Below, piece after piece: positions 7,605 through 44,433 of a stretch of 64,000 nucleotides of DNA. A program made the position numbers and the translations under genes. The stretch lies in assembly GCA_012646185.1 (NCBI GenBank), contig GCA_012646185.1_4706.1. The stretch is one strand, 5' to 3'. Within the stretch, counting starts at the first letter, position 1. Each line of letters starts with the position of its first letter. Under the pieces are notes generated by a model. It saw only the letters and a list, made by a program, of their open reading frames with translations. It had not been told where the DNA came from and ran no database searches. The DNA is from a phage.

Positions 7605-8435
7605 TTAATCGTAACTAAAATAAAGTTTGCTGCTGACGCCGCTATCGGAATGAGGTTTTAATACCAGAACAGAGCTTCCGAACGACGGAAGTATTGGAAC
7701 ATCTAAATCGTTCGCATCGGCAACTTTTCCATTATAAACGACATTGGCTGTTGTGATGAGTTCCCAAGCTAAGGTATAACTCATTGAAATCAGCGACGAG
7801 GCTAAACGGAATGCATTGTATCCTTCTGGAGTATCTCCAACCGACATCGAACGTATCGCATCTTGCGGCGGTAAATTTAGCTTGATGCCGTAGGTGCTGA
7901 ATGTGTGGAAATCCCCTTGTTTACTATCTTCTGGATAATACGAGGTTAGCGGTTCTCGTACCGTAAACAGTTCGCTAATATCGGTACTTACATCTTTTCG
8001 TGCGAGGAATTGAAACGTACCGTGCCATGATGCCGATGCGTCAGAACGAACGGGAACAGATATGGTTTTCTCGCCGCTTTCAAATTTAACCTGTGACGCT
8101 AACGCTGAAGAATCAAAGATCGTTAAATCGATCTTCAACCCATACTTCTTAAACAGCTGCGTTAAGCAGTCTGCTATCGTCGTCTTATCAGCAACGACAA
8201 TAAAAGGTTGGTGTTTGATAAAGAGCTTATTAATGTCTCGACGTTGAAGATAAACCTGTACGGGGTCTTCGACGTAGTAAACCGATTGTGGTGCGGGGGC
8301 TATAGAAAGGCGTAACCGACCCGATGCACCATACCAGGCTGGCGTTAACGTAACGTCTGACAGGGACAACGGATGCTGGAGATAGGCGTTTATTTTAGAT
8401 AACACTTCCTCCTGCCATGATGCTTCAGGATACAT
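7605..8435 (-). CDS. hypothetical protein (276 aa); third member of the shared N-terminal module family
   Basis: N-terminus ASWQEEVLSKIN...YLQRRDINKLF...YGLKIDLTIFD parallels 3261-3788 and 44535-45986; GAGGT before ATG at 8435. Confidence 0.6.
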   Translation of the reverse strand: MYPEASWQEEVLSKINAYLQHPLSLSDVTLTPAWYGASGRLRLSIAPAPQSVYYVEDPVQVYLQRRDINKLFIKHQPFIVVADKTTIADCLTQLFKKYGLKIDLTIFDSSALASQVKFESGEKTISVPVRSDASASWHGTFQFLARKDVSTDISELFTVREPLTSYYPEDSKQGDFHTFSTYGIKLNLPPQDAIRSMSVGDTPEGYNAFRLASSLISMSYTLAWELITTANVVYNGKVADANDLDVPILPSFGSSVLVLKPHSDSGVSSKLYFSYD

Positions 8436-8493
8436 GCTGACCTCATAGATGATCGTTGATAGGAAAGAAACCTAATTCATACCATGGGAACCT

Positions 8494-8555
8494 CAAAAAA
8501 AAAAAAATAGGAAAATAGGAAAAACGGTGTTCACCCCTAAAAAGGATGAACACCG
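8494..8555 (-). terminator. intrinsic terminator for minus-strand transcript: 9-bp stem hairpin (8525-8555) followed by a T14 run (A14 on plus, 8494-8507)
   Basis: Inverted repeat cggtgttca/tgaacaccg with 13-nt loop, directly after stop of 8576-9154 gene. Confidence 0.6.
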
Positions 8556-8575
8556 CGTACCGTTATATCGAACGA

Positions 8576-9154
8576 TTAGTAAGGAATCAGATCGTTAAGC
8601 TTTTCTTCTTCAATGACAAAGAAGTTGTTCTGGTCGTCTAAATCTGTTAACATGACTTGTCCGACAGTAAAGCACGTACCGCCCTTCTTAGGCATCCATA
8701 CCGGCTCATTCGTTACCTTATCGGGATACCATTTGAAACGATTGGTATCCAAGAAGAACGCTGCTTTGTTCGCTTTATCGGTTGAACGATAGCTAACCAA
8801 TGCAGGCCACTCAATCCAGGTGTTTGTGCATGGTACATGTAAAGGATACCAGGCACGCCAGCGTTTGCCTGGGTTGCTAGGATCAACCCAATACTCGGCA
8901 GTCAATACAGCATCTTTATAGTGTTTCTGCATTAACATTTCGAGCACAAGCTCATTACCTTTTGATGCATCTAAAGTCACTTCAGCCATATAAAGAGATT
9001 TAGGTAATTCAGACTGTTTTGCGGTTGGTGTTACAACGCCGGTAACCAACGGTCTGCTCGGTTTACGTTTCTGTTCTTTCCGACGTGTGTAAAAGAATAG
9101 TCCGACAGATACGGCAACAAGTATAATAAACAACACTACCTTAATCCAATTCAT
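8576..9154 (-). CDS. membrane-anchored hypothetical protein (192 aa, single N-terminal TM helix)
   Basis: N-terminus MNWIKVVLFIILVAVSVGLFFY followed by a basic stretch; 4-nt overlap with upstream gene. Confidence 0.6.
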   Translation of the reverse strand: MNWIKVVLFIILVAVSVGLFFYTRRKEQKRKPSRPLVTGVVTPTAKQSELPKSLYMAEVTLDASKGNELVLEMLMQKHYKDAVLTAEYWVDPSNPGKRWRAWYPLHVPCTNTWIEWPALVSYRSTDKANKAAFFLDTNRFKWYPDKVTNEPVWMPKKGGTCFTVGQVMLTDLDDQNNFFVIEEEKLNDLIPY

Positions 9155-30974: not shown

Positions 30975-31994
30975 TTACACCGCCACCTTAGCCTTGATAG
31001 CGGGATGTGATTGATATCCAACAAACACAAAGTCTTCGTAACAGTAATCCGTAATACTTTCCGGTTTACGTACGATTGTTAGCTTCGGTAATGGGTACGG
31101 CTCACGGCTGAGCTGCTCTTTAACCTGTTCGAAGTGGTTGTGATAGATGTGGCAATCTCCACCCGTCCACACGAACTCACCAACGTCCATATTCAGCTGT
31201 TGGGCAAGCATATGCGTCAGCAGTGAATATGATGCGATGTTAAAGGGAGTCCCTAAAACTGTGTCCTGTGATCTTGCGAGTAGCATGCATGATAAGGCGC
31301 GTGTCGGTACGCTGTGTGTATTCAACCAAAGTTCCGTTTCACTGTGTCGTACATCATCCGTAACCCACTGGGTTCTTAACACATCGTTGCGTTGAACATA
31401 ATCAACGCGTTCATCGATAGTGAGTTCGTGAGTGTAGAACTGATAGAAACTGTGGCATGCTGACAGCGCCATATCGTCTAAATCACCAACGTTCCATGCG
31501 CTAACGATGATCCGTCGAGAATCAGGATCTTCTTTGAGTTGACGCATCACGTTTGCGATTTGGTCGTGGTGTTTAACATACAAGAGATGTTTGACCATAC
31601 CGGCGTCAACAACACCGCAATACTCATAACCACGTTGCATCAAAGTACGGGTACGTTCTGTATCATGCGGAACAACCACTTTGTAGTCAATCCATTCTCG
31701 CCATTGTCTGCCGTAAATCGGTCCTAGATTCCCTTCCTTATCAGCCCATTCATTCCAGATACGAACACCGTTATCTTGAAGATAAGCAACGTTCGTATCA
31801 CCATTAAGAAACCAGAGCAGTTCGTGGATAACGCTCTTAAGGTGAATCTTCTTGGTGGTTACCAGCGGGAATCCTTTCTTCAAGTCAAAACGCATTTGAC
31901 GTCCGAATACGGAACGGGTTCCGGTACCTGTGCGGTCGGCCTTATCGCGACCATTATCCATGATGTCTTGCAAAAGGTCCAAATACTGTTTCAT
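30975..31994 (-). CDS. thyA: thymidylate synthase (ThyA family) carrying two in-frame insertions
   Basis: Near-identical blocks to E. coli ThyA: [63 protein letters not shown] (catalytic Cys present), [41 protein letters not shown]; 339 aa versus ~264. Confidence 0.85.
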
Positions 31995-32194
31995 TTTAAT
32001 CCTCTAAGTGTTTCAAGTAGTTCCTGAAATTTATAACGATATTTAGGATTGCTTAACGTGTAGCAGCAGCCATGTACCACGTTATACGCGTAATCAACTT
32101 GTAAACCACGAACCTTCGGATCCAATGATAGATTCAACGGCGCATCATCAAAAATCCACGCTTCAATGTTCTTCTTGGATTCCTTCGTTAACAT
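31991..32194 (-). CDS. hypothetical protein (67 aa)
   Basis: Short ORF, 4-nt overlap with thyA. Confidence 0.4.
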
Positions 32195-32317
32195 CGTTTT
32201 TCACCTCGTCGTAAAAGTAAATAGAGTTTTGTCGAGACGCCCTAATTACTTACAACGTCGGTTCTCCCGGCTTCAGAGAATTCTTAAAATCCGTTAGTTT
32301 TGATAGATAGGGTAAGA

Positions 32318-32347
32318 CGGCATAAGAGCCTCCCATTACGGGAGGCT
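32318..32347 (-). promoter_or_regulatory. GC hairpin (agcctccc/gggaggct) followed on minus strand by CTTATGCCG box
   Basis: Arms 32327-32334 and 32340-32347; box identical to that at 17711-17719. Confidence 0.4.
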
Positions 32348-32359
32348 TCATTAATCGGC

Positions 32360-32908
32360 TTATTTCACAAGAACAGCGAATTCGAGAACATAAATAGCTT
32401 CATCGTCCATCGGATTTGTTGTGGTATAACCAGCGAAGCAATAGCCCATATCCACGATAAACTCGCTAAGTTTATCGATGACTGATGCCCCGATACGATC
32501 GTCAACAGACAGGCGACATTTACGGGTTATGTTTTGCCCGCGAGGAACGCCAGCTAACACGGATAGGAAATGTACGATCCGGTTATTGGTTGCGAACTGC
32601 ATGTAATCATCGTAGTACTTAAGGTCTTTCATCGCAGACTCTACCGTCATACGACGACCAGGTGACACATACTCAGAATAAGAATAAGCTGCGATCGTAC
32701 GACGATCTTCAGTAAGGTAAGTATTCCCTTCGGGATGATAACTCTCGACTGTTCCGTCTTCATGGGTGACGGTCACAACAGGTGCGCCGTACTCATCGCG
32801 ACCGAAATCAATTTTACATTTATCCGAAAGCGGTAGAACCGTACAAGGCTTTGCACTGTTCTCATCAGGGAGATCGTAACCACTCATCATTTTCAAGAAC
32901 ATAGACAT
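32360..32908 (-). CDS. hypothetical protein (182 aa), tandem paralog A
   Basis: Shares MSxFxKxM...D.N.AKP.T...F.RD..G.P...THED...TIAAYSYS pattern with 32993-33526. Confidence 0.55.
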   Translation of the reverse strand: MSMFLKMMSGYDLPDENSAKPCTVLPLSDKCKIDFGRDEYGAPVVTVTHEDGTVESYHPEGNTYLTEDRRTIAAYSYSEYVSPGRRMTVESAMKDLKYYDDYMQFATNNRIVHFLSVLAGVPRGQNITRKCRLSVDDRIGASVIDKLSEFIVDMGYCFAGYTTTNPMDDEAIYVLEFAVLVK

Positions 32909-32992
32909 AATAGAACCTCATGATAATAGATAATAGAAATGATAGATAGTACAACAAATTGAGGGGTATTATCCCACCCCTCGTAGGGATTA

Positions 32993-33526
32993 CTACTTAA
33001 CGATCGCGATGATTTTGCCACCCGCACCGGCGTAATATGCCGTTAACTTACCAGTAAACAACTCTTGTAAAAGACGATTTACGTTACTAACAAAATTAGG
33101 ATTGTCCGATTTTACAAAATCGATGTTTCGCGTTTGTTTTATATCACGATCGATTAAACGGATTTCCAACAACGCACAAATAAGGCGATCGTCGAGTTTA
33201 CCACTCGCATCCAGCACTTCCCCATACTTCGTAGCACGGACGTCCGCATACATACGGTCAACATCATCCTTCCCAAAACCACAGGAATAGGCATACGTTG
33301 CGATGGTGTTACCATTGTCCATCACATAAACGTTACCACCTGGGTAATCGATAAATCGTTGATCCTTATCACCATGAGTGACGAACTCCAGTGTCGGTCT
33401 ACCTAGTGAATCACGATTGAATTCGATAGTTGTCAAACGGTCAGGCACCACATGTAACGTAAACGGTTTTGCATTGTTACGATCGCTAGTATCGCAGTTA
33501 CCCATTACTTTTACGATAACACTCAT
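32993..33526 (-). CDS. hypothetical protein (177 aa), tandem paralog B
   Basis: Paralog of 32360-32908; AAGGAA before ATG. Confidence 0.55.
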   Translation of the reverse strand: MSVIVKVMGNCDTSDRNNAKPFTLHVVPDRLTTIEFNRDSLGRPTLEFVTHGDKDQRFIDYPGGNVYVMDNGNTIATYAYSCGFGKDDVDRMYADVRATKYGEVLDASGKLDDRLICALLEIRLIDRDIKQTRNIDFVKSDNPNFVSNVNRLLQELFTGKLTAYYAGAGGKIIAIVK

Positions 33527-33600
33527 GTTTTATTCCTTAGTAGTCCTAGTAGTAGTATTGAGGAATTTCACCTCATTAGATAGTCTATTTTGGTAATGTT

Positions 33601-33900
33601 TTACTGAAACAAGACATTAAATTCGACAAGATACCCATCGGATCTATCGCCCCGATAACGGTTGCAGAAAACACCGAATTTCATCAAGAACTCACATAGC
33701 TCTTCGGCTTTGTATAACGGAATACGATTTTCGTCGAGCAGAGGGCAACTATGGCTAACCCGCTCCGACGAATCAACGCAACACAAATAAAGAAGGAACC
33801 GAACAATAGCTCGGTTCTTAGTAAAGCTCTCGAATTCACCCACAGTTCTGAACTCATCGAGGAGCTTTGTCGTTTTCTTCAATCGTTCACGATCGAGCAT
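33601..33900 (-). CDS. hypothetical protein (99 aa)
   Basis: ORF with TGAGGT before ATG at 33900. Confidence 0.45.
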   Translation of the reverse strand: MLDRERLKKTTKLLDEFRTVGEFESFTKNRAIVRFLLYLCCVDSSERVSHSCPLLDENRIPLYKAEELCEFLMKFGVFCNRYRGDRSDGYLVEFNVLFQ

Positions 33901-33913
33901 GTTAACCTCAATA

Positions 33914-33954
33914 CGAACATAACCCTCCTCCTTCCCTTACGGGTTGGAGGAGGG
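33914..33954 (-). promoter_or_regulatory. extended GC hairpin (ccctcctcc/ggaggaggg with inner ccc/ggg stem) followed on minus strand by TTATGTTCG
   Basis: Inverted repeat 33923-33931/33946-33954; the following ATG is out of frame with the downstream gene. Confidence 0.4.
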
Positions 33955-33963
33955 GATATACTG

Positions 33964-34278
33964 TTATTCTGTTTTCGGTGTTGAACCGTTCTTCTTGAAG
34001 TCGGATTCGTATTTCACGTTAGAATCGAGAACCTCACGAACGGTTTTATCTGTACAACCACGGGCGACGTATGCATTAAGATCGTCGCGTAATTTACGCA
34101 TCGTTGTTTTATCCGCATCAGAAACATCTGACTTGGTAAGACGGAATGCAATTGCATCACGAACTTTATTCAGCGTTGCTGGATTATTACGCTGCTCTGC
34201 AAATACCGCTTTGATGAATGTACCGCTATCTTTCGAAGCGATGGCTGCATCAAGAATTTCAATATGCTTTTCAGACAT
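33964..34278 (-). CDS. hypothetical protein (104 aa)
   Basis: ORF, co-oriented. Confidence 0.45.
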   Translation of the reverse strand: MSEKHIEILDAAIASKDSGTFIKAVFAEQRNNPATLNKVRDAIAFRLTKSDVSDADKTTMRKLRDDLNAYVARGCTDKTVREVLDSNVKYESDFKKNGSTPKTE

Positions 34279-34329
34279 CTTCTTTCCTTTAATAAACGAT
34301 CATCGTCATATTCATTGCGCAGGATGCTA

Positions 34330-35655
34330 TCACTTCAAAAGCTTAGACACCGCCATGCTTCGCGCCATCGCAACGTCATACGCATCCATGATCGCGTCAC
34401 CGATAGCGGTATGACGGATCAACGGAATACCCATATCTGGATACTCTTTGGTGCCTAAGATGGATACCGGTTTGTCTTGATACGCGGCAACCATCGAACG
34501 AATATCCTGAACCTGGTTATAACGGCAGATTGGTTTGAAGCCCGCTTTACGGAACCAATGCTCTAATTGCGGCCAATCTGTTTCACCACGAGCAAGATAA
34601 TAGAAGGTATCTTTACCGTAGTATTCGGTCATTTTGTCACGAATACTGTTGACGAACGCATTTACTTCGGCGATGGCTTCTTTATAACCCATTGCCTTAC
34701 AATGTTGAAAACAATAGTCGCGCGCTTCCTTTGGTGCTTTGGTTTGCCACCATTCTACTGTTGATTCACTGATACGACCACCGTCAGCGATTTGACCATG
34801 AACGTCAGGGAAGATATCTATACGCGGACCGTTAACAATGGATTCTGGATTAGCCAGATCGAAGAACACGATACCGATTTCCAGCAATACTCCATTCTTT
34901 TCCAGACTAAGGTTTTCAACATCTAAACAAAATGCGGGCTTCTCTACCGCTAACGGCTCGAACGAATGGTTGCTGGTATCCGATTCGGTTTTAAGTTCGA
35001 CGACAGCCGGATCGGTATCCGTAGGTTTCAGTTCTACTACAGCATCATCGAGTCCCGATAACGAAAAATAGTCTTCGAAGAAATCGGATATCGTCATACC
35101 ATGCAAATTGATATCGCAATCTTCCAACCATTGCTTCAACTGGTGCTCACCGGCATGAATCGCTAAACGGCACGGTCCGGAACGATCATCTAGCGCTGCA
35201 TCGATCCAGAAGAAAGCGCGTATAAGTAAGTAAGGATTATACTCCGCGATGATTTCTTGGCTAGCCGAGAAATCGTACACCATTAGTTGTATTATTCCCT
35301 TACGCGTGTTATACGGATCAACTTTCAATCGACGCACTATTTCTTCTACGAATTCCAACGCGCGCGTGTACGAGGTGGACCCACCTTGTTCATACGAACA
35401 TATACCCGTCAAAAGTTCCTTATAGGACGCATATGGAACCATAGGCGATAATTTGTACGACAGTTCAGTATTGTAATTATCGCATAATTTCTTCGGGGCG
35501 ATAGCATCCTGTATCGCTGTAATAAACGCCGGTCCATCAATATCAAACAACCATCCTTGACGCCGGTATGCAGTGTACCGTAATAACGCACCGATAACTG
35601 CCTGGGGCGGTGTATATTCTTTCCCGTTAATTTCAAACAGTAGTTTGCTCATCAT
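34330..35655 (-). CDS. protein with C-terminal DEDDh 3'-5' exonuclease domain (DnaQ/RNase T-like) and unknown N-terminal domain
   Basis: Exo I-like FCLDVENLSL, central YYLARGETDW, Exo III-like HTAIGDAIMDAYDV in the C-terminal ~190 aa. Confidence 0.6.
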   Translation of the reverse strand: MMSKLLFEINGKEYTPPQAVIGALLRYTAYRRQGWLFDIDGPAFITAIQDAIAPKKLCDNYNTELSYKLSPMVPYASYKELLTGICSYEQGGSTSYTRALEFVEEIVRRLKVDPYNTRKGIIQLMVYDFSASQEIIAEYNPYLLIRAFFWIDAALDDRSGPCRLAIHAGEHQLKQWLEDCDINLHGMTISDFFEDYFSLSGLDDAVVELKPTDTDPAVVELKTESDTSNHSFEPLAVEKPAFCLDVENLSLEKNGVLLEIGIVFFDLANPESIVNGPRIDIFPDVHGQIADGGRISESTVEWWQTKAPKEARDYCFQHCKAMGYKEAIAEVNAFVNSIRDKMTEYYGKDTFYYLARGETDWPQLEHWFRKAGFKPICRYNQVQDIRSMVAAYQDKPVSILGTKEYPDMGIPLIRHTAIGDAIMDAYDVAMARSMAVSKLLK

Positions 35656-35667
35656 AACACCTTTTCA

Positions 35668-36003
35668 TTATTCTGGTTTATCTGTTGTCAGGCCGAGTCC
35701 GGTCAATATCACGTAATCATACCACGCTTTTACTTCTGCTTTCGCTTCATCTAAACTGAATGCGTTGATGTGCGGAAACTCATCGTTGACTGGGAAAGGT
35801 AAATCGCAGTCGTAGCTTGTATCGTCTTTCCAACCTTTCCATTCGATCGTTAGGGAACCAAAAACGGTCTCAGCGACAACATGATTATAGCGACAGTTTT
35901 CACACGGTGCGTGCTCTTCCGACCACACAAGCTCATGCTGCGCTAAAAGTTGTTGTACAACCGATAATGGTTGCTCTTCATTAAGTTCGATACTGTCTAT
36001 CAT
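35668..36003 (-). CDS. hypothetical protein (111 aa)
   Basis: ORF, co-oriented. Confidence 0.45.
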   Translation of the reverse strand: MIDSIELNEEQPLSVVQQLLAQHELVWSEEHAPCENCRYNHVVAETVFGSLTIEWKGWKDDTSYDCDLPFPVNDEFPHINAFSLDEAKAEVKAWYDYVILTGLGLTTDKPE

Positions 36004-36596
36004 CGCATACCCTCCTTTTCCTTATCGTAATCGCTGCAAATATTGACAAACGCAGTATTATCAGACAGCGTGGCGACCATCTGACGGATTGCGACCAATG
36101 GTTCAAGTTTAGGATTGATTGATTCACCGGTCAACGCGCTTATTGCTCGTGTGATCTCAACCAAATCAACGTTCGGGTCTTTGTCATCAATAATGAGTAA
36201 ACTCTTCGCCGGTTTCTGACGACGTTTGATGATCAACAAATACGTGATGAGGTTCTCACGCCAAGCATCAGAATCCAGATTGCGTATCAGGGTTAACGCG
36301 CGACGCTCTTCCGCCCATGATGGTTTCTCACGGATAACAGGCATGTAAGATAATTGCTCAGCAAGCCCTTTCAAACTGACACGGTTGGTGCCACCGGGAT
36401 GCTCACTAATCCGCAACATCTCGGTTAACAGACGGACATAGGCGGCTGTTGTCGAAACACCCCTCAGCGGCAGGAACACATTATGTCCTGGAACCCCATC
36501 GTGACTCAGCGGTGCGATATACGCCATGAATCGCCGAATATCATCATCGGTCTGTTCTCCAGCAACGAACTTAAACGCTTCACGTAAAACGCTCAC
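36000..36596 (-). CDS. hypothetical protein (198 aa)
   Basis: ORF, 4-nt overlap. Confidence 0.5.
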   Translation of the reverse strand: MSVLREAFKFVAGEQTDDDIRRFMAYIAPLSHDGVPGHNVFLPLRGVSTTAAYVRLLTEMLRISEHPGGTNRVSLKGLAEQLSYMPVIREKPSWAEERRALTLIRNLDSDAWRENLITYLLIIKRRQKPAKSLLIIDDKDPNVDLVEITRAISALTGESINPKLEPLVAIRQMVATLSDNTAFVNICSDYDKEKEGMR

Positions 36597-36882
36597 TATG
36601 AAGTCTCCTTAATGTTTCTTGCATGCGTAGTCTCTTCGGCAGAAATAGACGTTTGTATAGATCGATTAACAGATAACGCATAACGGAAGCAACCACCAGG
36701 TATTCGCCTTCGGCTTCCGAGTAGCGTATCATGTTAATCGGATAGTTCAAATAAGAATAAGAAAAGAGATCATCGTTGGTGAGGTGATGATCTTCAAGAT
36801 ACTGACGAAACAATTCTGCTAAGGCATCGTACTCCATTCCGTAGTAACACAACGATACCTGTCTTACCGACAGTCGTTTCAT
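36580..36882 (-). CDS. hypothetical protein (100 aa)
   Basis: ORF, overlaps neighbours. Confidence 0.4.
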   Translation of the reverse strand: MKRLSVRQVSLCYYGMEYDALAELFRQYLEDHHLTNDDLFSYSYLNYPINMIRYSEAEGEYLVVASVMRYLLIDLYKRLFLPKRLRMQETLRRLHSERFT

Positions 36883-37721
36883 GCTGGGTTACCTTTTAGT
36901 TTTCCGCGTATCATGTCAACAACGCGTGAGGGATCAGAAATAACATTGGCGATAAGATGATCGATAGGTAGGTCGAGAATGATATTCTTCAGCTGGAAAG
37001 CCGTATCTTTACGACGCACGCCATAGAACACACCATCTTTAAACACAACCTCGTACGAAATGGGGAGCTGGCTAATAACCGTGTTAGCGTAATCACCCAA
37101 CCACATCGACCCCGCCATCAGATGCGCACAAACCGCATGACTAATACGCACATCTTTGTTCTTCCGGCTAACGTCTTTGGTTTTCGACATGGTGACCAGA
37201 AGCTCGCTGATCTTACTCAACATATCGTCGTATACCCCAAAGAACTTAATCAGTTGTCGGGCACCTAACGATATATATGTTTCCCGTGGTAAGACACAAC
37301 ACACCTGCGGTAACGTTCCAACCCCATAAACACAACTGTGTGGCGATAATGGGAGCAAATCAGCAACCGCGTTTTTGATGTTGTTATACTCAACGATATC
37401 ATTGAACGGTGAAAGGCCTTTCGTAATCGGTTTATCAATCGCCACATCGAACTCCGCGAACGTCCATGCTGCTTTACGTGGTTCCGCTTTCTGGTACGGT
37501 GGAGCCAGTACCGCGACAACGCGAAGCCGATGTTCATGGGTATCACGCAGCTTAAGTTGGATACCCTCATCGTCACCCTCACGCACAAGTGAGTAGCGGC
37601 TTGCGCAGTCATCACATACCACCGTTGGTTCGTGTTGACCGTATGCTGCAAGCATCGGTTTACTAAGATCTTTATCACAGTGTTTACAGCGATGATCCTG
37701 TTCCTGATAACTAATTTTCAC
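36879..37721 (-). CDS. hypothetical protein with N-terminal Cys4 zinc-ribbon (280 aa)
   Basis: CKHCDKD...VVCDDCASRY near N-terminus. Confidence 0.55.
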   Translation of the reverse strand: MKISYQEQDHRCKHCDKDLSKPMLAAYGQHEPTVVCDDCASRYSLVREGDDEGIQLKLRDTHEHRLRVVAVLAPPYQKAEPRKAAWTFAEFDVAIDKPITKGLSPFNDIVEYNNIKNAVADLLPLSPHSCVYGVGTLPQVCCVLPRETYISLGARQLIKFFGVYDDMLSKISELLVTMSKTKDVSRKNKDVRISHAVCAHLMAGSMWLGDYANTVISQLPISYEVVFKDGVFYGVRRKDTAFQLKNIILDLPIDHLIANVISDPSRVVDMIRGKLKGNPA

Positions 37722-37736
37722 ACCGAGACCCCTTTG

Positions 37737-38693
37737 TTAATGCAAGACACGATCTGCTGGAATTATCGAAGCATTGCTGTCGGACAGATTCGTCGCTTTA
37801 CGATCAGGACTGAATCGACGAGCGTTCTCTTCATGGTAGTTGACAGGGTTATCCTGTTTTAACAGTTCCATTGCCTCATCAAACGTTAGTTCCCGAAATC
37901 CTCTTGGATAGAGGAACAGGGGTTCATCAACATCCAGCCCTTTAACAAACCCGTGCGACAACCAGACACTACCATCAGCACTGTAAAGAACCGGCTCAAC
38001 GTCATAATCCAAGACGTATTGATACCAATAATTAAACAGTTGAGCAATCCACCGATTACGTAATAAGTAATCGATCGTAACCGCACTACGCACGCTGTGG
38101 CACCAGCCGATCTTACCATCAACTTTCTGCAGCAACGTACCCTCATTTGCTTGATGAATAACCGCATTAAATAACCACGCGAGATCGGTTGCGAAAAGTG
38201 CGGCTTCTTGAATATCGCTAATGTAACGCATGGGTATCGTCAGATGCGTGCGGTAATGTGACATTGCCTCTTCGTAGTTGTCTCCTTCGATGCAGAGAGT
38301 CCCGTTTGGCGACAGATGTCCCTGATTCAACGACTGACCAATATAAAGATCAGCGATCGCGTTAATATATTCGACGGTGCCCAAGGTTAACTCAGACATA
38401 AAACAATCGACATCAACAGCCATCGATGTGCTGGAAACAAACGGATTGGTTGGGCGAGTTGTATTAGAGAAAATAATCGACCAAATCGCTTCGTGTTTTT
38501 CATCCGATGGCAAAAACGAAATATGGCGTTCTGCGCTATTATCGACAACAAATACCTTAACGGTTTTCAAACAGCTAGTACAAACATAGCACGTGTTCGG
38601 CAACGGCATATCCGAAAACATATCGTAACGAATCGATGCCAACGAAATGTCATGTCCGCAATGAGGGCATGTCGTATCAATAAGCGTTTTCAT
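37737..38693 (-). CDS. hypothetical protein with N-terminal Cys4 zinc-ribbon (318 aa)
   Basis: TCPHCGHD...CYVCTSCLKT near N-terminus. Confidence 0.55.
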   Translation of the reverse strand: MKTLIDTTCPHCGHDISLASIRYDMFSDMPLPNTCYVCTSCLKTVKVFVVDNSAERHISFLPSDEKHEAIWSIIFSNTTRPTNPFVSSTSMAVDVDCFMSELTLGTVEYINAIADLYIGQSLNQGHLSPNGTLCIEGDNYEEAMSHYRTHLTIPMRYISDIQEAALFATDLAWLFNAVIHQANEGTLLQKVDGKIGWCHSVRSAVTIDYLLRNRWIAQLFNYWYQYVLDYDVEPVLYSADGSVWLSHGFVKGLDVDEPLFLYPRGFRELTFDEAMELLKQDNPVNYHEENARRFSPDRKATNLSDSNASIIPADRVLH

Positions 38694-38923
38694 TATTGAA
38701 TTCCTTTTGATAAGAATAACTGAATATCGGTAAACTGTTCTTCAGGAACATCGTCAGCAGCCGTTAGAACCTTAGAGCCATGTTCATTGAGGTAAGCTTC
38801 CCGTAGACAACGATGACGTCGATTGGCTTCCTGGAACTCAGTGTCCGTCATGTAAACCAGCGTAAACTTCGAACGTTTATTCGGATTGTATCTCTTATTA
38901 CGTTTCTTTGGTTTCTTCGCCAT
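38693..38923 (-). CDS. small basic protein (~76 aa)
   Basis: Start moved to ATG 38923 (MAKKPKKRNKRYNPNKRSK) with GAGG SD; the track start lies in hairpin 38938-38961. Confidence 0.4.
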   Translation of the reverse strand: MAKKPKKRNKRYNPNKRSKFTLVYMTDTEFQEANRRHRCLREAYLNEHGSKVLTAADDVPEEQFTDIQLFLSKGIQ

Positions 38924-38937
38924 AATAGCCTCGTGAA

Positions 38938-38961
38938 GGTGGATGGGCACACCCATCCACC
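38938..38961 (-). terminator. 10-bp GC hairpin ggtggatggg/cccatccacc with 4-nt loop
   Basis: Perfect inverted repeat between stop of 38987-39493 and start of 38693-38923. Confidence 0.45.
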
Positions 38962-38986
38962 TTCCTCCATGTTAAAGTGCGTTCAT

Positions 38987-39493
38987 TTATTCAGGTGTAC
39001 GTACGGTACGCGTGTTGGGATCAACCATTGCTGGCACACCCGCTGGACATTTACGGACATCGATCCGCATCTCCGGCTCGATCGGACGAACGCGATACGT
39101 TTTGCCGTCATCGGTTAACACCGAAATGGTCAACGCTTGGTTCAATTCACTAACGAAGCTCACCAAACGCTGTTGTCCGCCCTTCGACCAGAAGTTAAGA
39201 TCGGTTTCTCCATTGAAATAACTGATTCCATCAGCGGTTCCAATCGTGATTTTAACGATACCTGGATAGTCACGAAGAAGAGGTGCCTGATAACCTTCAT
39301 CTTCCGTATCCAGTTTTACCCACGCGCCTCCCGTAGACAAGCAGTTAACTTCCAAGGCGGTTGGTGCACTGACTTCTGCTGATGACCAGGTATACATCGT
39401 GCCTAGTTTAGCGTGTCCAGTTTCCAGTTCGCTATAATCCCAAGCATGTGCTGAAGCCGCAATAAACAAAGTCGCAAGAAACAACTTTTTCAT
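38987..39493 (-). CDS. secreted protein (168 aa)
   Basis: Signal-peptide-like N-terminus MKKLFLATLFIAASAHA. Confidence 0.5.
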   Translation of the reverse strand: MKKLFLATLFIAASAHAWDYSELETGHAKLGTMYTWSSAEVSAPTALEVNCLSTGGAWVKLDTEDEGYQAPLLRDYPGIVKITIGTADGISYFNGETDLNFWSKGGQQRLVSFVSELNQALTISVLTDDGKTYRVRPIEPEMRIDVRKCPAGVPAMVDPNTRTVRTPE

Positions 39494-39547
39494 TCTTTCG
39501 ATTCCTATTAAAAGTGACCGATTTCTGTGGTCGAGATTGCTAATAAA

Positions 39548-40009
39548 TTAATTCCGGTTTTGTTTCCGTATTGCACGGTTACGTTTACGTTCTTGGTCTT
39601 TGACTGTACCAAGAAACTTCTTTAATTCTGACGGTTCGAGCGTACCCTCACGTACCACACCGTTTTGTTCGATATGGTACGACCAATAACCAACTTCAGC
39701 CGTTAAGGATAACGTTGTCGGTTGTTCGTCAGGTAACGATCGGGGTGAGAAAATAAAGAGTAATTCAAAAGGCGTTTCTCGGCTGATGGTGGGGCGGATA
39801 CTCACATCAAGTCCCTCCCATCGCTGAGGTTTAAATATTCCTCCGGCGGCGATGATTGTCTCCGAGCGCTGGTCTACAAGCTCAGCTAATTCACGATCAT
39901 CGTTGAAATAAATATCGTGAAGGATATCCGTATCGATAAAAAACCCGCGATCCGAATCGTGACGAACAATGGAATTCTTCATTCTAACGCCTTTATTGTT
40001 TGTTTTCAT
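39548..40009 (-). CDS. hypothetical protein (153 aa)
   Basis: ORF, co-oriented. Confidence 0.5.
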   Translation of the reverse strand: MKTNNKGVRMKNSIVRHDSDRGFFIDTDILHDIYFNDDRELAELVDQRSETIIAAGGIFKPQRWEGLDVSIRPTISRETPFELLFIFSPRSLPDEQPTTLSLTAEVGYWSYHIEQNGVVREGTLEPSELKKFLGTVKDQERKRNRAIRKQNRN

Positions 40010-40056
40010 GTCCTATACGAACATGAAAAACCGTTAATTTTTACCGTAGTCGTGTG

Positions 40057-40332
40057 TTAAAAATCCACGCCGCGACCCGTCATCGACGAAGGAACCGCGC
40101 GATAATAGAAGTAGATGTAATGGTCACGATGGCTAAAACAGTTTTTGCAAGCATAGAACTCTCCAGATCCAATGAATGATTTAATACGTGTAACTTGAGG
40201 GTGTCGTGTGAGTAACGCCTGTAGAACGATTTCCATTTGGTGTGCGCTCAAACCAGGTCGAGCTGCAACATGATAATGAAGCTCCTTAAGAAATCGCTTC
40301 CAGGGGTCAGGTTGTGTCGATGATCGAGACAT
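40057..40332 (-). CDS. hypothetical protein (91 aa)
   Basis: ORF with AAGGAGATAAAG before ATG at 40332. Confidence 0.4.
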   Translation of the reverse strand: MSRSSTQPDPWKRFLKELHYHVAARPGLSAHQMEIVLQALLTRHPQVTRIKSFIGSGEFYACKNCFSHRDHYIYFYYRAVPSSMTGRGVDF

Positions 40333-40357
40333 CTTTATCTCCTTAACGGGTGCTGGT

Positions 40358-40388
40358 AACGCAGCATAAACCCTCCCCGAAGGGAGGG
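40358..40388 (-). promoter_or_regulatory. GC hairpin CCCTCCC-TTCG-GGGAGGG followed on minus strand by TTTATGCTGCG box
   Basis: Arms 40371-40377 and 40382-40388 with a TTCG loop in minus sense; directly after stop of phosphatase gene; the ATG begins only a 10-codon ORF. Confidence 0.45.
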
Positions 40389-40398
40389 CGGTTAACGT

Positions 40399-40956
40399 TT
40401 ACTCCATCCATACTTCTTCGTCGTAATGATTTTCTATCGCATTACGCCAAAAACGTACGGTGTCCAAACTAATCGGTGCGTAAAAGTGTTGGTCAACGCC
40501 GACGTTAAGTCCGTTGGCCTTCGCTAACATACAGCGATGAATATGACCGAATAAATTAAAGTAGCCTGGGTTTCTTTCGCTGGGCTTATGGCATAGCCAG
40601 TAGGATTCGTCATTGCTAATCGGCAATACCAGCGGGTGCTCATAAACAGCAGCAAACCCCATACCGAGCAGTTTATCACGCCACGCTTCGAAGCTTAATC
40701 CTGTCGCTTTGTATGCGTCTTCGTCCCAATTCCCCATTACCAATTGAACCTGGATATCAGAACGAATGGCTTCCACGAACTCGAACTTACCCCAATCACC
40801 TAAATGCCATAACACACTGTTCTTTGGAAGGTTGTTGATGGCTTTCAGCATATGCTGGTTCATATCGGCGACGCTTGCGAACGGACGGCGTGAATACGTC
40901 CATGTACGCTCGCTATCAAAATGGGTATCCGACATAAAGAAGATGGGTGGGGTCAT
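40399..40956 (-). CDS. calcineurin-like metallophosphatase (Ser/Thr phosphatase or ApaH-like)
   Basis: Motifs in order: FMSDTHFD (DxH), HLGDWGKF (GD), VMGNWDED (GNHD/E-like), FGHIHR (GH). Confidence 0.7.
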   Translation of the reverse strand: MTPPIFFMSDTHFDSERTWTYSRRPFASVADMNQHMLKAINNLPKNSVLWHLGDWGKFEFVEAIRSDIQVQLVMGNWDEDAYKATGLSFEAWRDKLLGMGFAAVYEHPLVLPISNDESYWLCHKPSERNPGYFNLFGHIHRCMLAKANGLNVGVDQHFYAPISLDTVRFWRNAIENHYDEEVWME

Positions 40957-41435
40957 TGATTTAATTGCTCCAGAAATGCGCGACCCGATTTACTTGCTTT
41001 TAAATGCTGTTCTGCGGAAGTAAGCAGAAGATCGGTTGGCGTATATGCAGCGCTACCTTTCCACGCTGTTTTCAGTTTACCCTTTTCGATACTGAACTGA
41101 ATCAGTTGTTGGGTACCGAAGTTAAGCGTGTTCGTCGCGGCGCTAAATACACCGCCCATCATGCTGTAACCAAAGACTTTCACGTTTTCCGTGTAGAAGT
41201 CGTTATCGATCAATTTGTTCTGGAGCTCGAGTTGGTCGGACGGCAGCAATCCCCCATCAAAGACGCTTAAAATACCAGCCAGGCGATACATGCTCACCTT
41301 TCCTGAAACGCCCACCACGTAGTTGCCGTACAGGGTTTCTTCCAGTTTAGCAACAACGGTGCGATCGTCGGAGGTTTTCATCGAAACCTCAATACCATCA
41401 CCAACTTCTGTTAACGTTAAATCAACGATACTCAT
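40953..41435 (-). CDS. hypothetical protein (160 aa)
   Basis: ORF, 4-nt overlap with phosphatase gene. Confidence 0.5.
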   Translation of the reverse strand: MSIVDLTLTEVGDGIEVSMKTSDDRTVVAKLEETLYGNYVVGVSGKVSMYRLAGILSVFDGGLLPSDQLELQNKLIDNDFYTENVKVFGYSMMGGVFSAATNTLNFGTQQLIQFSIEKGKLKTAWKGSAAYTPTDLLLTSAEQHLKASKSGRAFLEQLNQ

Positions 41436-41456
41436 TCATTATTCTCCGCTTTCATG

Positions 41457-42143
41457 TTAACACATGATTTCACCATGTTTCTTTTCAACATACGTATAAA
41501 CGTCATCCAAATAAGCAATGAGTTTATCACGATCCGCACAGAGCGATTTAATCACCGCAATCTCTTTCATATAAAGCTGCTGACCTAACGCCGGATACGT
41601 AATCCATGCGTAGCCGTCAGGCGCAAATTTAGAAATAAGATAATCAGCGGTTTCCTGTAATGCGAACTCTTTACTCATCTGGCCGTAACGATGTTCGATT
41701 GCACGGATACCAAAACGTTCGTTATCAAGACGACCCATATCCGCCAAACGAAGCACCTGAGAAGCAACCGAGCTACGTGGACCAGAGTACGAGGCACGAT
41801 GTTCAGCAATAAGTACGCGTATCTCCTCGATGTCCTCCGGTGTGAAAATATGCTGCTCGTTACGAAGCAGGATAACCGATGCACGAATACCCCCGATAAG
41901 GTGGTGGTATGTTCTGTTTTCGTGGCAAGCGATATCATGCATAAAAGCAGCGGTTAATAGACGACGACGTTCCGTGGGTCTGATGATCCCAACCACATCA
42001 GCAAGTTCATTTGCCAGTTCAACAACAGCAAGCACATGTTCTTCTTGATGTGCAAGATCGTTCTTCCGAATATTTTCAATTACTTCAGCGCGTGTTTCCT
42101 GAGATAAGAAATTTAAACAATCCAACGAATATAAAGATTTCAT
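41457..42143 (-). CDS. HD-domain phosphohydrolase-like protein
   Basis: HEEHVLAVVELA ... AAFMHDIACHE ... histidine and aspartate pattern typical of HD domain. Confidence 0.55.
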   Translation of the reverse strand: MKSLYSLDCLNFLSQETRAEVIENIRKNDLAHQEEHVLAVVELANELADVVGIIRPTERRRLLTAAFMHDIACHENRTYHHLIGGIRASVILLRNEQHIFTPEDIEEIRVLIAEHRASYSGPRSSVASQVLRLADMGRLDNERFGIRAIEHRYGQMSKEFALQETADYLISKFAPDGYAWITYPALGQQLYMKEIAVIKSLCADRDKLIAYLDDVYTYVEKKHGEIMC

Positions 42144-42188
42144 CGCACGTACCTCTTTGAATCTATTAATAAATTTTCTTTACTCACG

Positions 42189-42208
42189 TAAGTAATATAG
42201 CCGTGAAA
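42189..42208 (-). promoter_or_regulatory. second copy of conserved 20-mer taagtaatatagccgtgaaa, about 46 nt upstream of ATG at 42143
   Basis: Exact 20/20 identity with 14177-14196; lies in the divergent intergenic region. Confidence 0.4.
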
Positions 42209-42303
42209 GGATTTGTGTTGGTCCGTCTCGATGCCCATCGTATTTTATGGATTGTCGAATGACGTCATTTTAAGGGACATCCCCGGCCTCCTCCCCAGGA
42301 AAG

Positions 42304-44433
42304 GTGTGGGGAGGAGTTTTTATCATACATTCTATTAAATCGAGCGCGATTATGTTGGATAGAATCAATCGTTTAATGAACCGAATAACGGTTAAAAATC
42401 AGAGTAACAACACCGTGCATATCGGGGGTATCGATGCCTGGCGTCTTTCAGATGACATTCAGCGAATATGGGGTACCTCCCGATTTATGAAACATATGTT
42501 TCGTAATTTCTCTTCTAGTGGACTCAGTCTCCACAACTTTTACCTTCCCGATTTCGTTTATATTCTCGAAACGATCATCGAAGCAAAGAATACCCGTAGC
42601 AACAAACGCATGCTGAAACACCTTATTGAGGTACTGCTACAGGAAACCTGGCTGCAAAATACCACAATCGAGCAACCTGCAATCCTCGATAAAGCACGCA
42701 TGAACAAAATGCTAACGCTCTCTTTGTTCGATTATCAAGATGAGTTTATCGACATCTATAACCGTAACGTACCTAAATACCGACTGAAAGGATACGTGTG
42801 CGCGATGGGTGCTGGTGCGGGTAAAACAATCACCGCATTGGCTTTAAGCGCCGCAATGAACGTCGACGTATTTGTGGTCTGCTGTCCTAAGAACACCATG
42901 CGTTCAGCATGGCAATCCGATGTAAACAAAGCCATCGTTGACCCCGCAACAGAAACCGCGTTCTGGTCAGACACAATGCCACCATCACAGCTGCAGAAAA
43001 GCGATAAGTATTATTTTCTGCATTACGAATCGATGGGTTTATTAAACGATGTAATGATCAAGCATAAACGCACAGCGAAGCGCGTTCTTATTGTTGTTGA
43101 CGAAAGCCATAACTTCAACGACAAGAACAGCCAACGTTCCCAACGACTGGTTGATCTTGTACAGACAATGCGTCAAACCATGAATGCGGATGTGCACGTC
43201 TTGTTTATGTCGGGTACGCCTGTTAAACAAATGGGTTCTGAGATGATCCCCTGTTTAGGTTGTATCGACCCGATGTTCCAAGGACAGGTGGTCGATAGCT
43301 TCAAATCAATTTACGGTTTAACCAGCAGTCGCGCTAACGATATCCTCAGACATCGTCTTGGGTTCATGATGCATGTCGTACCTAAAGAGGCTTATCGTAA
43401 AACCCGTCCGGAAGTTCAGGACGTTTACGTGAAGCTCCCTAACGGTAGCGATTATACCATCTCAAGTATCCGCGACGACATGGCGGTATTTGTACGCGAT
43501 CGGGCGAAGTATTACAAGGATAACTGGGGGCATTACAGAAAGATTTTTGATGACGCCTTGGACTACTATCGTAAGACTATTCGTACCGATGGTGAACGTA
43601 AAGAGCTATCTCGATACGAATCGATTGTTACTCGTTTCCAGAAAGGTTACGATCCCGTCAGAGACAAAGAAGATGCGATGTTCTGCAATACGTTTGAAAA
43701 ACGAGCGATCATGCCGGTTCTTCCTTCCGATTTAAGGATCGCTTTCAAAGACGCCAAGAGCGTCATCAAGTACGTTGGGTTGAAAATTCAGGGTGAAGCG
43801 TTAGCGCGCGTTCTCGGTGCAGCCCGCATTCGGTGTCATGTCGACATGGTGGAGTACATCGACTTCGAAGGGTACATCAACAACGCTGAAGCCAAAGTGT
43901 TGATCTTCACGTCGTACGTTCAGGTGGTTGAGCGCGTCGACAACCTGCTTCGTGATGCGGGTTTCTTACCGGAACCCATTTACGGGAAGACCAACAAAAA
44001 CATCAACCAAATACTTGCTCGTCTACGCGATGATCCTGACAGCGGTCCCGCTATTGCAACATTTGATAGCTTAGCTGAAGGGGTTCCGATGCTGATGTGT
44101 AATGTCGGCCTTTTCCTGAACAACCCGTGGCGTTCATCCGATGAAATCCAAGCCATCAGCCGTCTCGATCGCGTAGGACAAACGCAGCCTGTTCGGATTT
44201 ATCGTTTCATGTTGGATACAGGAAGCGAGGGTAACGTTTCTACACGTAGCCACGAAATCATGGAGTTAAGTCGACAGCTTGTTGAAGAAATCACGGGTGT
44301 CAAATATGTTGTGAACAAGCAAGATGATGTTAACTTGCAAGAAACGTTGGCAATGGAAGGATACGACCAATACGTTACCGTAAACACCACGGAATACGAT
44401 ATTAAACCACGACCTGCGTTCTTGGAATGGTGA
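42304..44433 (+). CDS. superfamily 2 DNA/RNA helicase (DExH box)
   Basis: Walker A CAMGAGAGKTITAL, motif II VVDESHNF, motif III FMSGTPV, helicase C-terminal region; true start may be ATG at 42352. Confidence 0.7.
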   Translation: MWGGVFIIHSIKSSAIMLDRINRLMNRITVKNQSNNTVHIGGIDAWRLSDDIQRIWGTSRFMKHMFRNFSSSGLSLHNFYLPDFVYILETIIEAKNTRSNKRMLKHLIEVLLQETWLQNTTIEQPAILDKARMNKMLTLSLFDYQDEFIDIYNRNVPKYRLKGYVCAMGAGAGKTITALALSAAMNVDVFVVCCPKNTMRSAWQSDVNKAIVDPATETAFWSDTMPPSQLQKSDKYYFLHYESMGLLNDVMIKHKRTAKRVLIVVDESHNFNDKNSQRSQRLVDLVQTMRQTMNADVHVLFMSGTPVKQMGSEMIPCLGCIDPMFQGQVVDSFKSIYGLTSSRANDILRHRLGFMMHVVPKEAYRKTRPEVQDVYVKLPNGSDYTISSIRDDMAVFVRDRAKYYKDNWGHYRKIFDDALDYYRKTIRTDGERKELSRYESIVTRFQKGYDPVRDKEDAMFCNTFEKRAIMPVLPSDLRIAFKDAKSVIKYVGLKIQGEALARVLGAARIRCHVDMVEYIDFEGYINNAEAKVLIFTSYVQVVERVDNLLRDAGFLPEPIYGKTNKNINQILARLRDDPDSGPAIATFDSLAEGVPMLMCNVGLFLNNPWRSSDEIQAISRLDRVGQTQPVRIYRFMLDTGSEGNVSTRSHEIMELSRQLVEEITGVKYVVNKQDDVNLQETLAMEGYDQYVTVNTTEYDIKPRPAFLEW

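Follow-up and report, generated by a model that had tools for sequence, protein, structure and literature searches.

Two adjacent early proteins of a Goslar-like jumbo phage with N-terminal Cys4 zinc-ribbon-like modules and unclassified C-terminal regions

Zinc ribbons are often found at the N-terminus of factors of the TFIIB, TFIIS, Ogr and Com types. Generic ribbons held by four cysteines (Cys4), such as those of the LysW/ArgW carrier proteins, the RNA polymerase (RNAP) subunits RpoP/RPABC4 and the TFIIB N-terminus, have two CxxC knuckles 20-25 residues apart. Primases of the T7 gp4/DnaG type combine an N-terminal zinc-binding module with a domain of ~220-250 residues, while Com of phage Mu, Ogr/Delta of P2 and Lar of Rac are early phage proteins of 50-90 amino acids (aa) that consist of a single domain built on a Cys4 ribbon. 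Here we analysed two adjacent genes in a stretch of 64,000 nucleotides (nt) of phage DNA (contig GCA_012646185.1_4706.1; this whole stretch is called the window below). Their products, protein A (the open reading frame (ORF) at 36879-37721) and protein B (the ORF at 37737-38693), both carry such cysteine knuckles near the N-terminus.

A and B are like the generic Cys4 ribbons in the spacing of their two knuckles and in a module of about 50-60 residues that is tentatively predicted to be rich in beta-hairpins, and their best (non-significant) matches are found there. Unlike in those proteins, the putative ribbon here forms the N-terminus of a protein of 280-318 aa, the rest of which is unclassified, and no family threshold is reached. 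The outline of a zinc-binding module followed by a larger domain, encoded in a phage DNA-metabolism region, is shared with the T7 gp4/DnaG primases, but the TOPRIM signature (conserved Glu, DxD), profile similarity, a helicase domain and family-wide conservation are all missing. With Mu Com, P2 Ogr/Delta and Rac Lar, to which weak sub-threshold matches were obtained, the similarity is limited to the cysteine knuckles, and A and B are 4-5 times longer. As described below, A and B are real, early-expressed, non-virion and lineage-restricted proteins in which a ribbon-like N-terminus is fused to a C-terminal region; these C-terminal regions differ from each other, and neither belongs to a described family. 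The features concerned are as follows.

37737..38693, minus strand: protein B, ATG start, 318 aa, isoelectric point (pI) 4.9; predicted N-terminal Cys4 zinc ribbon, then an acidic, mostly helical region
38508..38693, minus strand: predicted zinc-ribbon domain of B, residues 1-62; codons for C9, C12, C38 and C41 within 38571-38669
36879..37721, minus strand: protein A, GTG start, 280 aa, pI 8.1; predicted N-terminal Cys4 zinc ribbon, then an alpha/beta region
37572..37721, minus strand: predicted zinc-ribbon domain of A, residues 1-50; codons for C12, C15, C36 and C39 within 37605-37688

Conserved Cys4 motifs and zinc-ribbon-like N-termini

Positions 36000-40000 of the window align over their full length, with 96.4% nucleotide identity, to Escherichia phage vB_EcoM_Goslar (MK327938, 237 kb), a nucleus-forming Escherichia coli jumbo phage of the Chimalliviridae. 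A is the orthologue of Goslar gp151 (Goslar_00151; QBO63944.1 / YP_009820836.1; 97.9% amino-acid identity) and B that of gp152 (Goslar_00152; QBO63945.1 / YP_009820837.1; 98.4%). The Goslar proteins have the same length, position and neighbours as A and B, from which they differ by few substitutions, and both are labelled 'hypothetical protein' in GenBank. Literature searches by accession, locus tag and gp number returned no paper that gives gp151 or gp152 a function, and no genome-wide Goslar fitness screen surfaced in the searches made.

A first-pass annotation of this DNA had pointed out two adjacent ORFs starting with C-x2-C...C-x2-C motifs, and both indeed exist, on the minus strand. The motif of A reads C12-x2-C15-x20-C36-x2-C39, and that of B C9-P-H-C12-x25-C38-x2-C41 with an additional C35 that is not conserved, so that each protein has the two CxxC pairs, ~15-30 residues apart, that are expected of a Cys4 zinc ribbon. 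The six reading frames of the 64-kb window contain 223 ORFs with 60 aa or more, and the pattern CxxC-x(8-40)-CxxC is present in A and B only. When the proteins were shuffled with their composition preserved (200,000 shuffles each), the motif fell within the first 50 residues in a fraction of 1.8e-4 for A and 9.5e-5 for B.

The same annotation held that the ribbons would fall if the cysteines were not conserved in homologues. The four motif cysteines of A and of B were found to be invariant in every aligned full-length homologue, including those of a distant metagenomic sister clade in which overall identity drops to 24-25% (A) and 23-24% (B). The remaining cysteines vary (A 130, 141, 142 and 198; B 35, 97, 134 and 198). 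Other invariant features of B are an RFSPDR motif, the C-terminal Leu-His and His11 of the CPHC, which is not followed by a His-Asn-His pattern. In A, the cross-clade alignment contains no invariant Asp, no DxD and no invariant His outside the ribbon. A chance cysteine pattern in unremarkable or non-functional ORFs is an explanation to which we give almost no credence: nothing speaks for it beyond the absent family matches, the shuffles put it at about 1e-4 per protein, and it is refuted by the Cys4 that stays invariant at 23-25% identity beside varying other cysteines, and by the purifying selection and the detected mRNA and peptides described below.

Structure prediction gave a mixed picture. 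The AlphaFold2 models, built on shallow alignments that did not include the sister clade, have a mean predicted local distance difference test score (pLDDT) of only 42 (B) and 44 (A), with moderate confidence in the N-terminal segments only, which are beta-rich: in B, beta strands are confined to the N-terminal segment (pLDDT about 53-81), and the N-terminal segment of A is likewise predicted as beta (pLDDT about 51-74). Foldseek searches of PDB with both models, and of BFVD with A, yielded nothing at E below 0.1. The best, non-significant matches were the LysW zinc-ribbon protein for B (probability 0.57, E 0.17) and, in BFVD, a 54-aa RNAP-subunit zinc ribbon for A (probability 0.72, E 1.0). 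Sequence profile searches of PDB with A and B returned no match.

Family libraries behaved similarly. No significant match was found in Pfam, PHROGs, NCBIfam or PADLOC for the window proteins, any alignment member or the sister-clade proteins, and none of the zinc-ribbon models of Pfam or NCBIfam reached threshold for A or B. The sub-threshold Pfam and NCBIfam matches over the N-termini were scattered across zinc-ribbon families, with best E values of 0.003-0.2; they include Zn_ribbon_Com (E 0.005 in two of eight members), weak Ogr_Delta and Brz matches, and Lar in one sister-clade protein only (E 0.064). A recurrent DUF7590 match for A (E about 0.01) and a GpA_ATPase match for B (E 0.003) lie far below threshold and were not taken as evidence. 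The invariance of the Cys4 across clades, the beta-rich N-termini and the fact that the weak matches there are all zinc-ribbon families together support the reading of the N-terminal ~50-60 residues of A and B as Cys4 zinc-ribbon-like modules, as had been proposed. An hhalign comparison of A with B aligned residues 1-45 only (E 4e-5, probability 69.5%) and BLASTP detected no match between them, which leaves a common origin of the two ribbons possible at the sequence level. A whole-gene duplication was considered and is not shown, the alignment being limited to the N-termini.

The first-pass annotation had also listed primases, transcription factors and some nucleases as typical bearers of such ribbons. 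Domain searches gave no support to a primase, TFIIS-like factor or nuclease role, even at E values up to 1. Specifically, Toprim, DnaG, AEP and PriCT were without a Pfam match for A or B at E up to 1; TFIIS_C and TFIIB were not matched in the family libraries, and the ribbon of A and B is N-terminal, where that of TFIIS domain III, with its acidic DE hairpin, is C-terminal and that of TFIIB is joined to cyclin folds; no HNH or other nuclease family was matched in Pfam, PHROGs or NCBIfam. A comparison with the T7 gp4 primase fragment (residues 1-271) by hhalign gave probabilities of 1% (A) and 0.4% (B).

Charge bears on what the ribbons might contact. The ribbon segments have a net charge of -5 to +1 and are thus neutral to slightly acidic, in apparent contrast to nucleic-acid-binding ribbons, and outside its ribbon B carries a net charge of -10 to -18 in both clades (pI of the whole protein 4.8-5.3). 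It is conceivable that A and B are nucleic-acid-directed regulators whose ribbon contacts RNAP, DNA or mRNA, as in TFIIB, TFIIS, Ogr/Delta and Mu Com, and thereby tunes early-to-late expression or translation. The weak matches to Zn_ribbon_Com, Ogr_Delta, Brz and the RNAP-subunit ribbon would fit this, as would the adjacent basic protein gp153 (see below), the conserved N-terminus of which could bind nucleic acid. However, these matches lie far below the family thresholds and are spread over many unrelated zinc-ribbon families, the ribbons are neutral to acidic and B as a whole is strongly acidic, and the family searches detected no helix-turn-helix or other DNA-binding domain in A or B. We therefore regard a regulatory role as unlikely.

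Early expression and narrow distribution

Expression and virion data are available for the Goslar proteins and were not obtained on this exact genome. Knockdown of ChmA arrests infection at the membrane-vesicle stage (bioRxiv 10.1101/2023.09.20.558163). In the accompanying RNA-seq data, the log2 fold changes were +0.55, +0.65 and +0.29 for gp151 and +0.51, +0.47 and +0.25 for gp152, and structural genes changed by -4 to -7 log2 (bioRxiv 10.1101/2023.09.20.558163, Supplementary Table 2). The whole gp106-gp159 block of roughly 50 genes behaves like gp151 and gp152 in these published data, and the two genes belong to the early, nucleus-independent transcription class. At the protein level, tandem mass tag (TMT) proteomics of infected cells detected gp152 with nine peptides and gp151 with 4-6; under ChmC knockdown both were present at 0.73-1.13 of the control, which the authors call typical for early proteins (bioRxiv 10.1101/2023.09.22.559000). 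In purified virions the pair was represented by two peptides and one peptide, with estimates of 1.2-2.8 and 0.2-0.5 copies (bioRxiv 10.64898/2026.04.21.720040, Table S4). This trace signal is at the level of the DNA polymerase and terminase, and gp151 and gp152 accordingly do not count among the virion components. Two genes for virion proteins were also observed in the early ChmA-independent block (log2 fold change +0.1 to +0.9): gp146 (window 33964-34278), the capsid 'latch' protein, and gp158 (40953-41435), estimated at about 600-1450 copies per virion (Goslar virion structure preprint).

Homologues of A and B are rare. A word-indexed search of 5.8 billion proteins gave six clusters for A, all at 86% identity or more, and nine for B, down to 58% identity. 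With the A profile, 1.84 billion representatives were searched exhaustively by HMMER; besides the Goslar-like cluster, a single distant protein was found, P0016 (E 2e-19; BLASTP identity 28% over the aligned part). P0016 and its relatives P0017 and P0018 keep the Cys4 at 25% identity, and the metagenomic contigs that encode these relatives preserve the gene order of Goslar. With tblastn against 50,697 phage records A and B were found in Goslar only, GTDB genomes gave no match, and searches of IMG/VR, metagenomes and INPHARED agree with this narrow distribution. No entry of the published 72-gene chimallivirus core tables matched gp151 or gp152. A search with the neighbouring gp149 for positional homologues in cultured relatives matched Goslar only, and in Erwinia phage Yoloswag, the nearest carrier of the metallophosphoesterase of this block, the locus is not syntenic as judged from the annotation table only, with no profile search of the locus. 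By these searches, the A and B families are confined to Goslar-like phages and one metagenomic sister clade.

In the sister clade the gene order starts with an SNF2 helicase on the opposite strand, followed by an HD hydrolase, a gp158-like gene, a metallophosphoesterase, small ORFs and a gp153-like gene, and continues with the homologues of B (342-348 aa) and A (271-272 aa), a dUTPase/dCTP-deaminase, a gp149-like gene and, farther on, an Rv2179c-type exonuclease. The dUTPase/dCTP-deaminase gene fills the slot of gp150 between A and gp149 (10813-11307 in contig L017 and 9780-10274 in L019). About 5 kb farther downstream lies an AcrVA2-like gene (PF26125). In a 3.5-kb contig (L007, Logan ERR13298120; positions 2-764 and 2089-2651), the B homologue is broken by a stop into two ORFs and the gp149 homologue is also split, which reflects either assembly or frameshift errors or a decay of the module in that genome.

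This distribution also bears on the idea that A is a cryptic primase or replication-initiation factor, its outline of a Cys4 ribbon plus a domain of ~220 residues being like the T7 gp4 primase fragment. Chimalliviruses are reported to 'lack identifiable ... primases' (PMC13648698), and A could be imagined as a fold-divergent priming or replication-initiation factor that supplies, at least in the Goslar lineage, the activity reportedly lacking; we hold this to be highly improbable. Besides that gap, the superficially similar architecture and a neighbourhood of nucleotide-metabolism and DNA enzymes are in its favour. Against it stand the negligible hhalign probabilities, the missing Toprim, DnaG, AEP and PriCT matches and the absence of an invariant Asp or DxD from A, and also the absence of A and B from all other chimalliviruses and from the core tables. 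Moreover, TOPRIM and AEP folds would usually be predicted confidently, unlike the models of A and B.

The gp153-B-A unit and the allelic cassettes of B

A and B are embedded in a compact run of genes on the same strand, of which the following parts are needed here.

38693..38956, minus strand: small basic protein, orthologue of Goslar gp153, 87 aa, directly upstream of B
37722..37736, minus strand: B-A spacer, 15 nt, containing a Shine-Dalgarno-like AAGGGG
35668..36882, minus strand: downstream genes gp150 (36580-36882), gp149 (36000-36596) and gp148 (35668-36003)

The first-pass annotation had seen a small basic protein gene following the pair. The gene is real and its product basic (pI 9.6), but it follows in plus-strand coordinates only and is transcriptionally upstream of B. 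Its stop codon overlaps the ATG of B by one base. The stop of A and the start of gp150 overlap as ATGA, as do gp149 and gp148, and gp150 and gp149 overlap by 17 nt. The B-A spacer measures 14-16 nt in all relatives, the sister clade included (gene coordinates in L002, L003, L017 and L019). The first 32 residues of gp153 have a pI of 11.2, and their motif PKKRNK[RK]YNP[NH]KR is conserved in the sister clade (alignment; tblastn to L017 and L019), the sole other clade having the three genes, which it retains in the order gp153, B, A. The stop/start overlaps, the conserved spacer and the retained gp153 motif identify gp153, B and A as a conserved trio, which is probably translationally coupled.

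Some further observations concern the genes around the trio. The 87-aa call of gp153 may start too far upstream (window 38923-38956): an alternative start at Met12 would give 76 aa, the gene call in L002 and the sister-clade homologue start at the residue corresponding to Met12 (MAKKPKKRNKRYNP / MTKAPKKRNKKYNP), and that ATG is preceded by a GAGG at a distance of 5 nt. Such a start would place the basic motif at the very N-terminus. The next gene upstream, the gp154 orthologue (38987-39493, minus strand, 168 aa, 43-44% conserved in the sister clade), begins with MKKLFLATLFIAASAHA, which resembles a cleavable signal peptide and suggests that the product may be exported or periplasmic, though encoded in the early block. 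Enzymes encoded in the neighbourhood are an exonuclease, an HD hydrolase, a metallophosphoesterase, an SNF2 helicase and a thymidylate synthase. Matches to sigma-70-like promoters are depleted at 31000-43000 (11 against 24.7 +/- 4.9 expected from shuffles), which fits a region that is not transcribed by the host RNAP.

We compared the alleles of the block among Goslar-like genomes. Pairwise Nei-Gojobori estimates against five Goslar-like contigs, where the synonymous divergence (dS) was measurable, gave ratios of non-synonymous to synonymous divergence (dN/dS) of 0.07-0.17 for A and 0.03-0.13 for B; by this measure both genes are under purifying selection. Identity is 84-98% for most neighbouring genes and 86-91% for A, and B shows 99%, 90%, 76% or 58-60% identity depending on the genome. 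In the 58-60% alleles of B (L002 and L016), the proportion of synonymous differences (pS) is 0.63-1.0 along the whole gene, against a flanking dS of 0.2-0.6. Such saturation over the entire gene next to lower flanking values points to old allelic cassettes that were exchanged by recombination. Positive selection on B is not demonstrable, the synonymous sites being saturated across the whole divergent allele. The most constrained part of B comprises residues 201-240. No other genes of the block have diverged as far between the clades as A and B (about 24% identity against 37-61% for most neighbours). The notion that A evolves unusually slowly was dropped after a comparison of all genes of the block, in which A is average and B, with gp147, the outlier.

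The two genes do not always travel together. In L015, B is 99% but A only 90% identical, and in L002 and L016 B is 58-60% and A 90-91% identical; the differing A allele beside a nearly identical B in L015 indicates that A and B reassort independently. The L015 stretch 8001-8840, which encodes A, is 90-93% identical together with gp148 and gp150 (dS 0.23-0.38), whereas identity is 97-99% (dS 0.03-0.16) for the remaining flanking genes, among them gp149. This pattern indicates patchy recombination, with putative breakpoints where B and A adjoin, or close by, and also between gp147 and gp148. The gp147 orthologue itself (34330-35655, minus strand), an Rv2179c-like 3'-5' exonuclease, is also mosaic, with 40% (L002) and 52% (L013) identity against 87-97% for its neighbours. 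In the sister clade the exonuclease domain is found in a much shorter protein of 177-244 aa, and the N-terminal 240 residues of gp147 appear to be a swappable extra domain.

The deep alleles of B invite another explanation, namely that A and especially B are anti-defence or host-takeover inhibitors, with B neutralising a variable host factor or defence protein and its diverged alleles reflecting an arms race. Early expression and an accessory, lineage-restricted distribution are in line with this, as are the at least three deep alleles of B (99/90, 76 and 58-60%), swapped as a whole-gene cassette among neighbours of 84-98% identity, the acidity of B in both clades and the AcrVA2-like gene a few kb downstream in the sister clade. 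On the other hand, there is no PADLOC match and no significant anti-defence family, with Lar reaching just E 0.064; B has a low dN/dS where dS is measurable, and the saturated synonymous sites of its divergent alleles point to old allelic divergence with recombination, without demonstrable positive selection; and the equally mosaic exonuclease gp147 means that cassette swapping is not specific to B. We consider inhibition by these proteins possible but doubtful. Inhibition of a host factor or defence protein by B is nonetheless the most attractive specific version of an accessory role, although it should be taken as tentative. A milder proposal, in which gp153, B and A would be the three proteins of a new early module and would neutralise a host factor ahead of nucleus formation, is likelier than A acting as a primase.

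A proposed lineage-specific early accessory module

We favour, as the more probable interpretation, that A and B are non-catalytic binding proteins from an early accessory module that is specific to this lineage. They would act early in infection, in the cytoplasm, as accessory proteins without catalytic activity, and the zinc ribbon, small and rigid, would probably have a docking or structural role towards a protein partner and not towards nucleic acid. B and A may act jointly, perhaps together with gp153. The non-catalytic, protein-binding character is suggested by the lack of an enzyme domain, by the absence of invariant Asp or His from A outside the ribbon, by the neutral or acidic ribbons and by the acidic B. 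We infer from the searches above that A and B are not primases, TFIIS-like factors or nucleases.

Several points weigh against this interpretation. The favoured function was deduced from sequences and models, zinc binding by A and B is itself a prediction from the cysteine pattern, and the cytoplasmic location is assumed. The poor AlphaFold models (pLDDT 42 and 44) leave room for an unrecognised enzymatic fold in the C-terminal regions, and with effectively two clades the lists of invariant residues have little power. The exhaustive HMMER search covered the A profile only, not B. Finally, the independent reassortment of A and B alleles is a weak argument against tight co-evolution of an A-B interface.

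The finding adds modestly to what is known, with a familiar type of domain occurring in two phage protein families that are unclassified. The analysis does remove a tempting but unsupported lead, that of A and B as the missing chimallivirus primase; beyond that, the two proteins are ordinary phage dark matter. Goslar is, however, the E. coli model of the intensively studied nucleus-forming jumbo phages, most early genes of which are without a function. Since A and B are real, early, predicted to bear a zinc ribbon and linked to a basic partner gene, and since B occurs in deep allelic cassettes, they are reasonable candidates for knockdown and pull-down experiments on the vulnerable stage of infection that precedes the phage nucleus.

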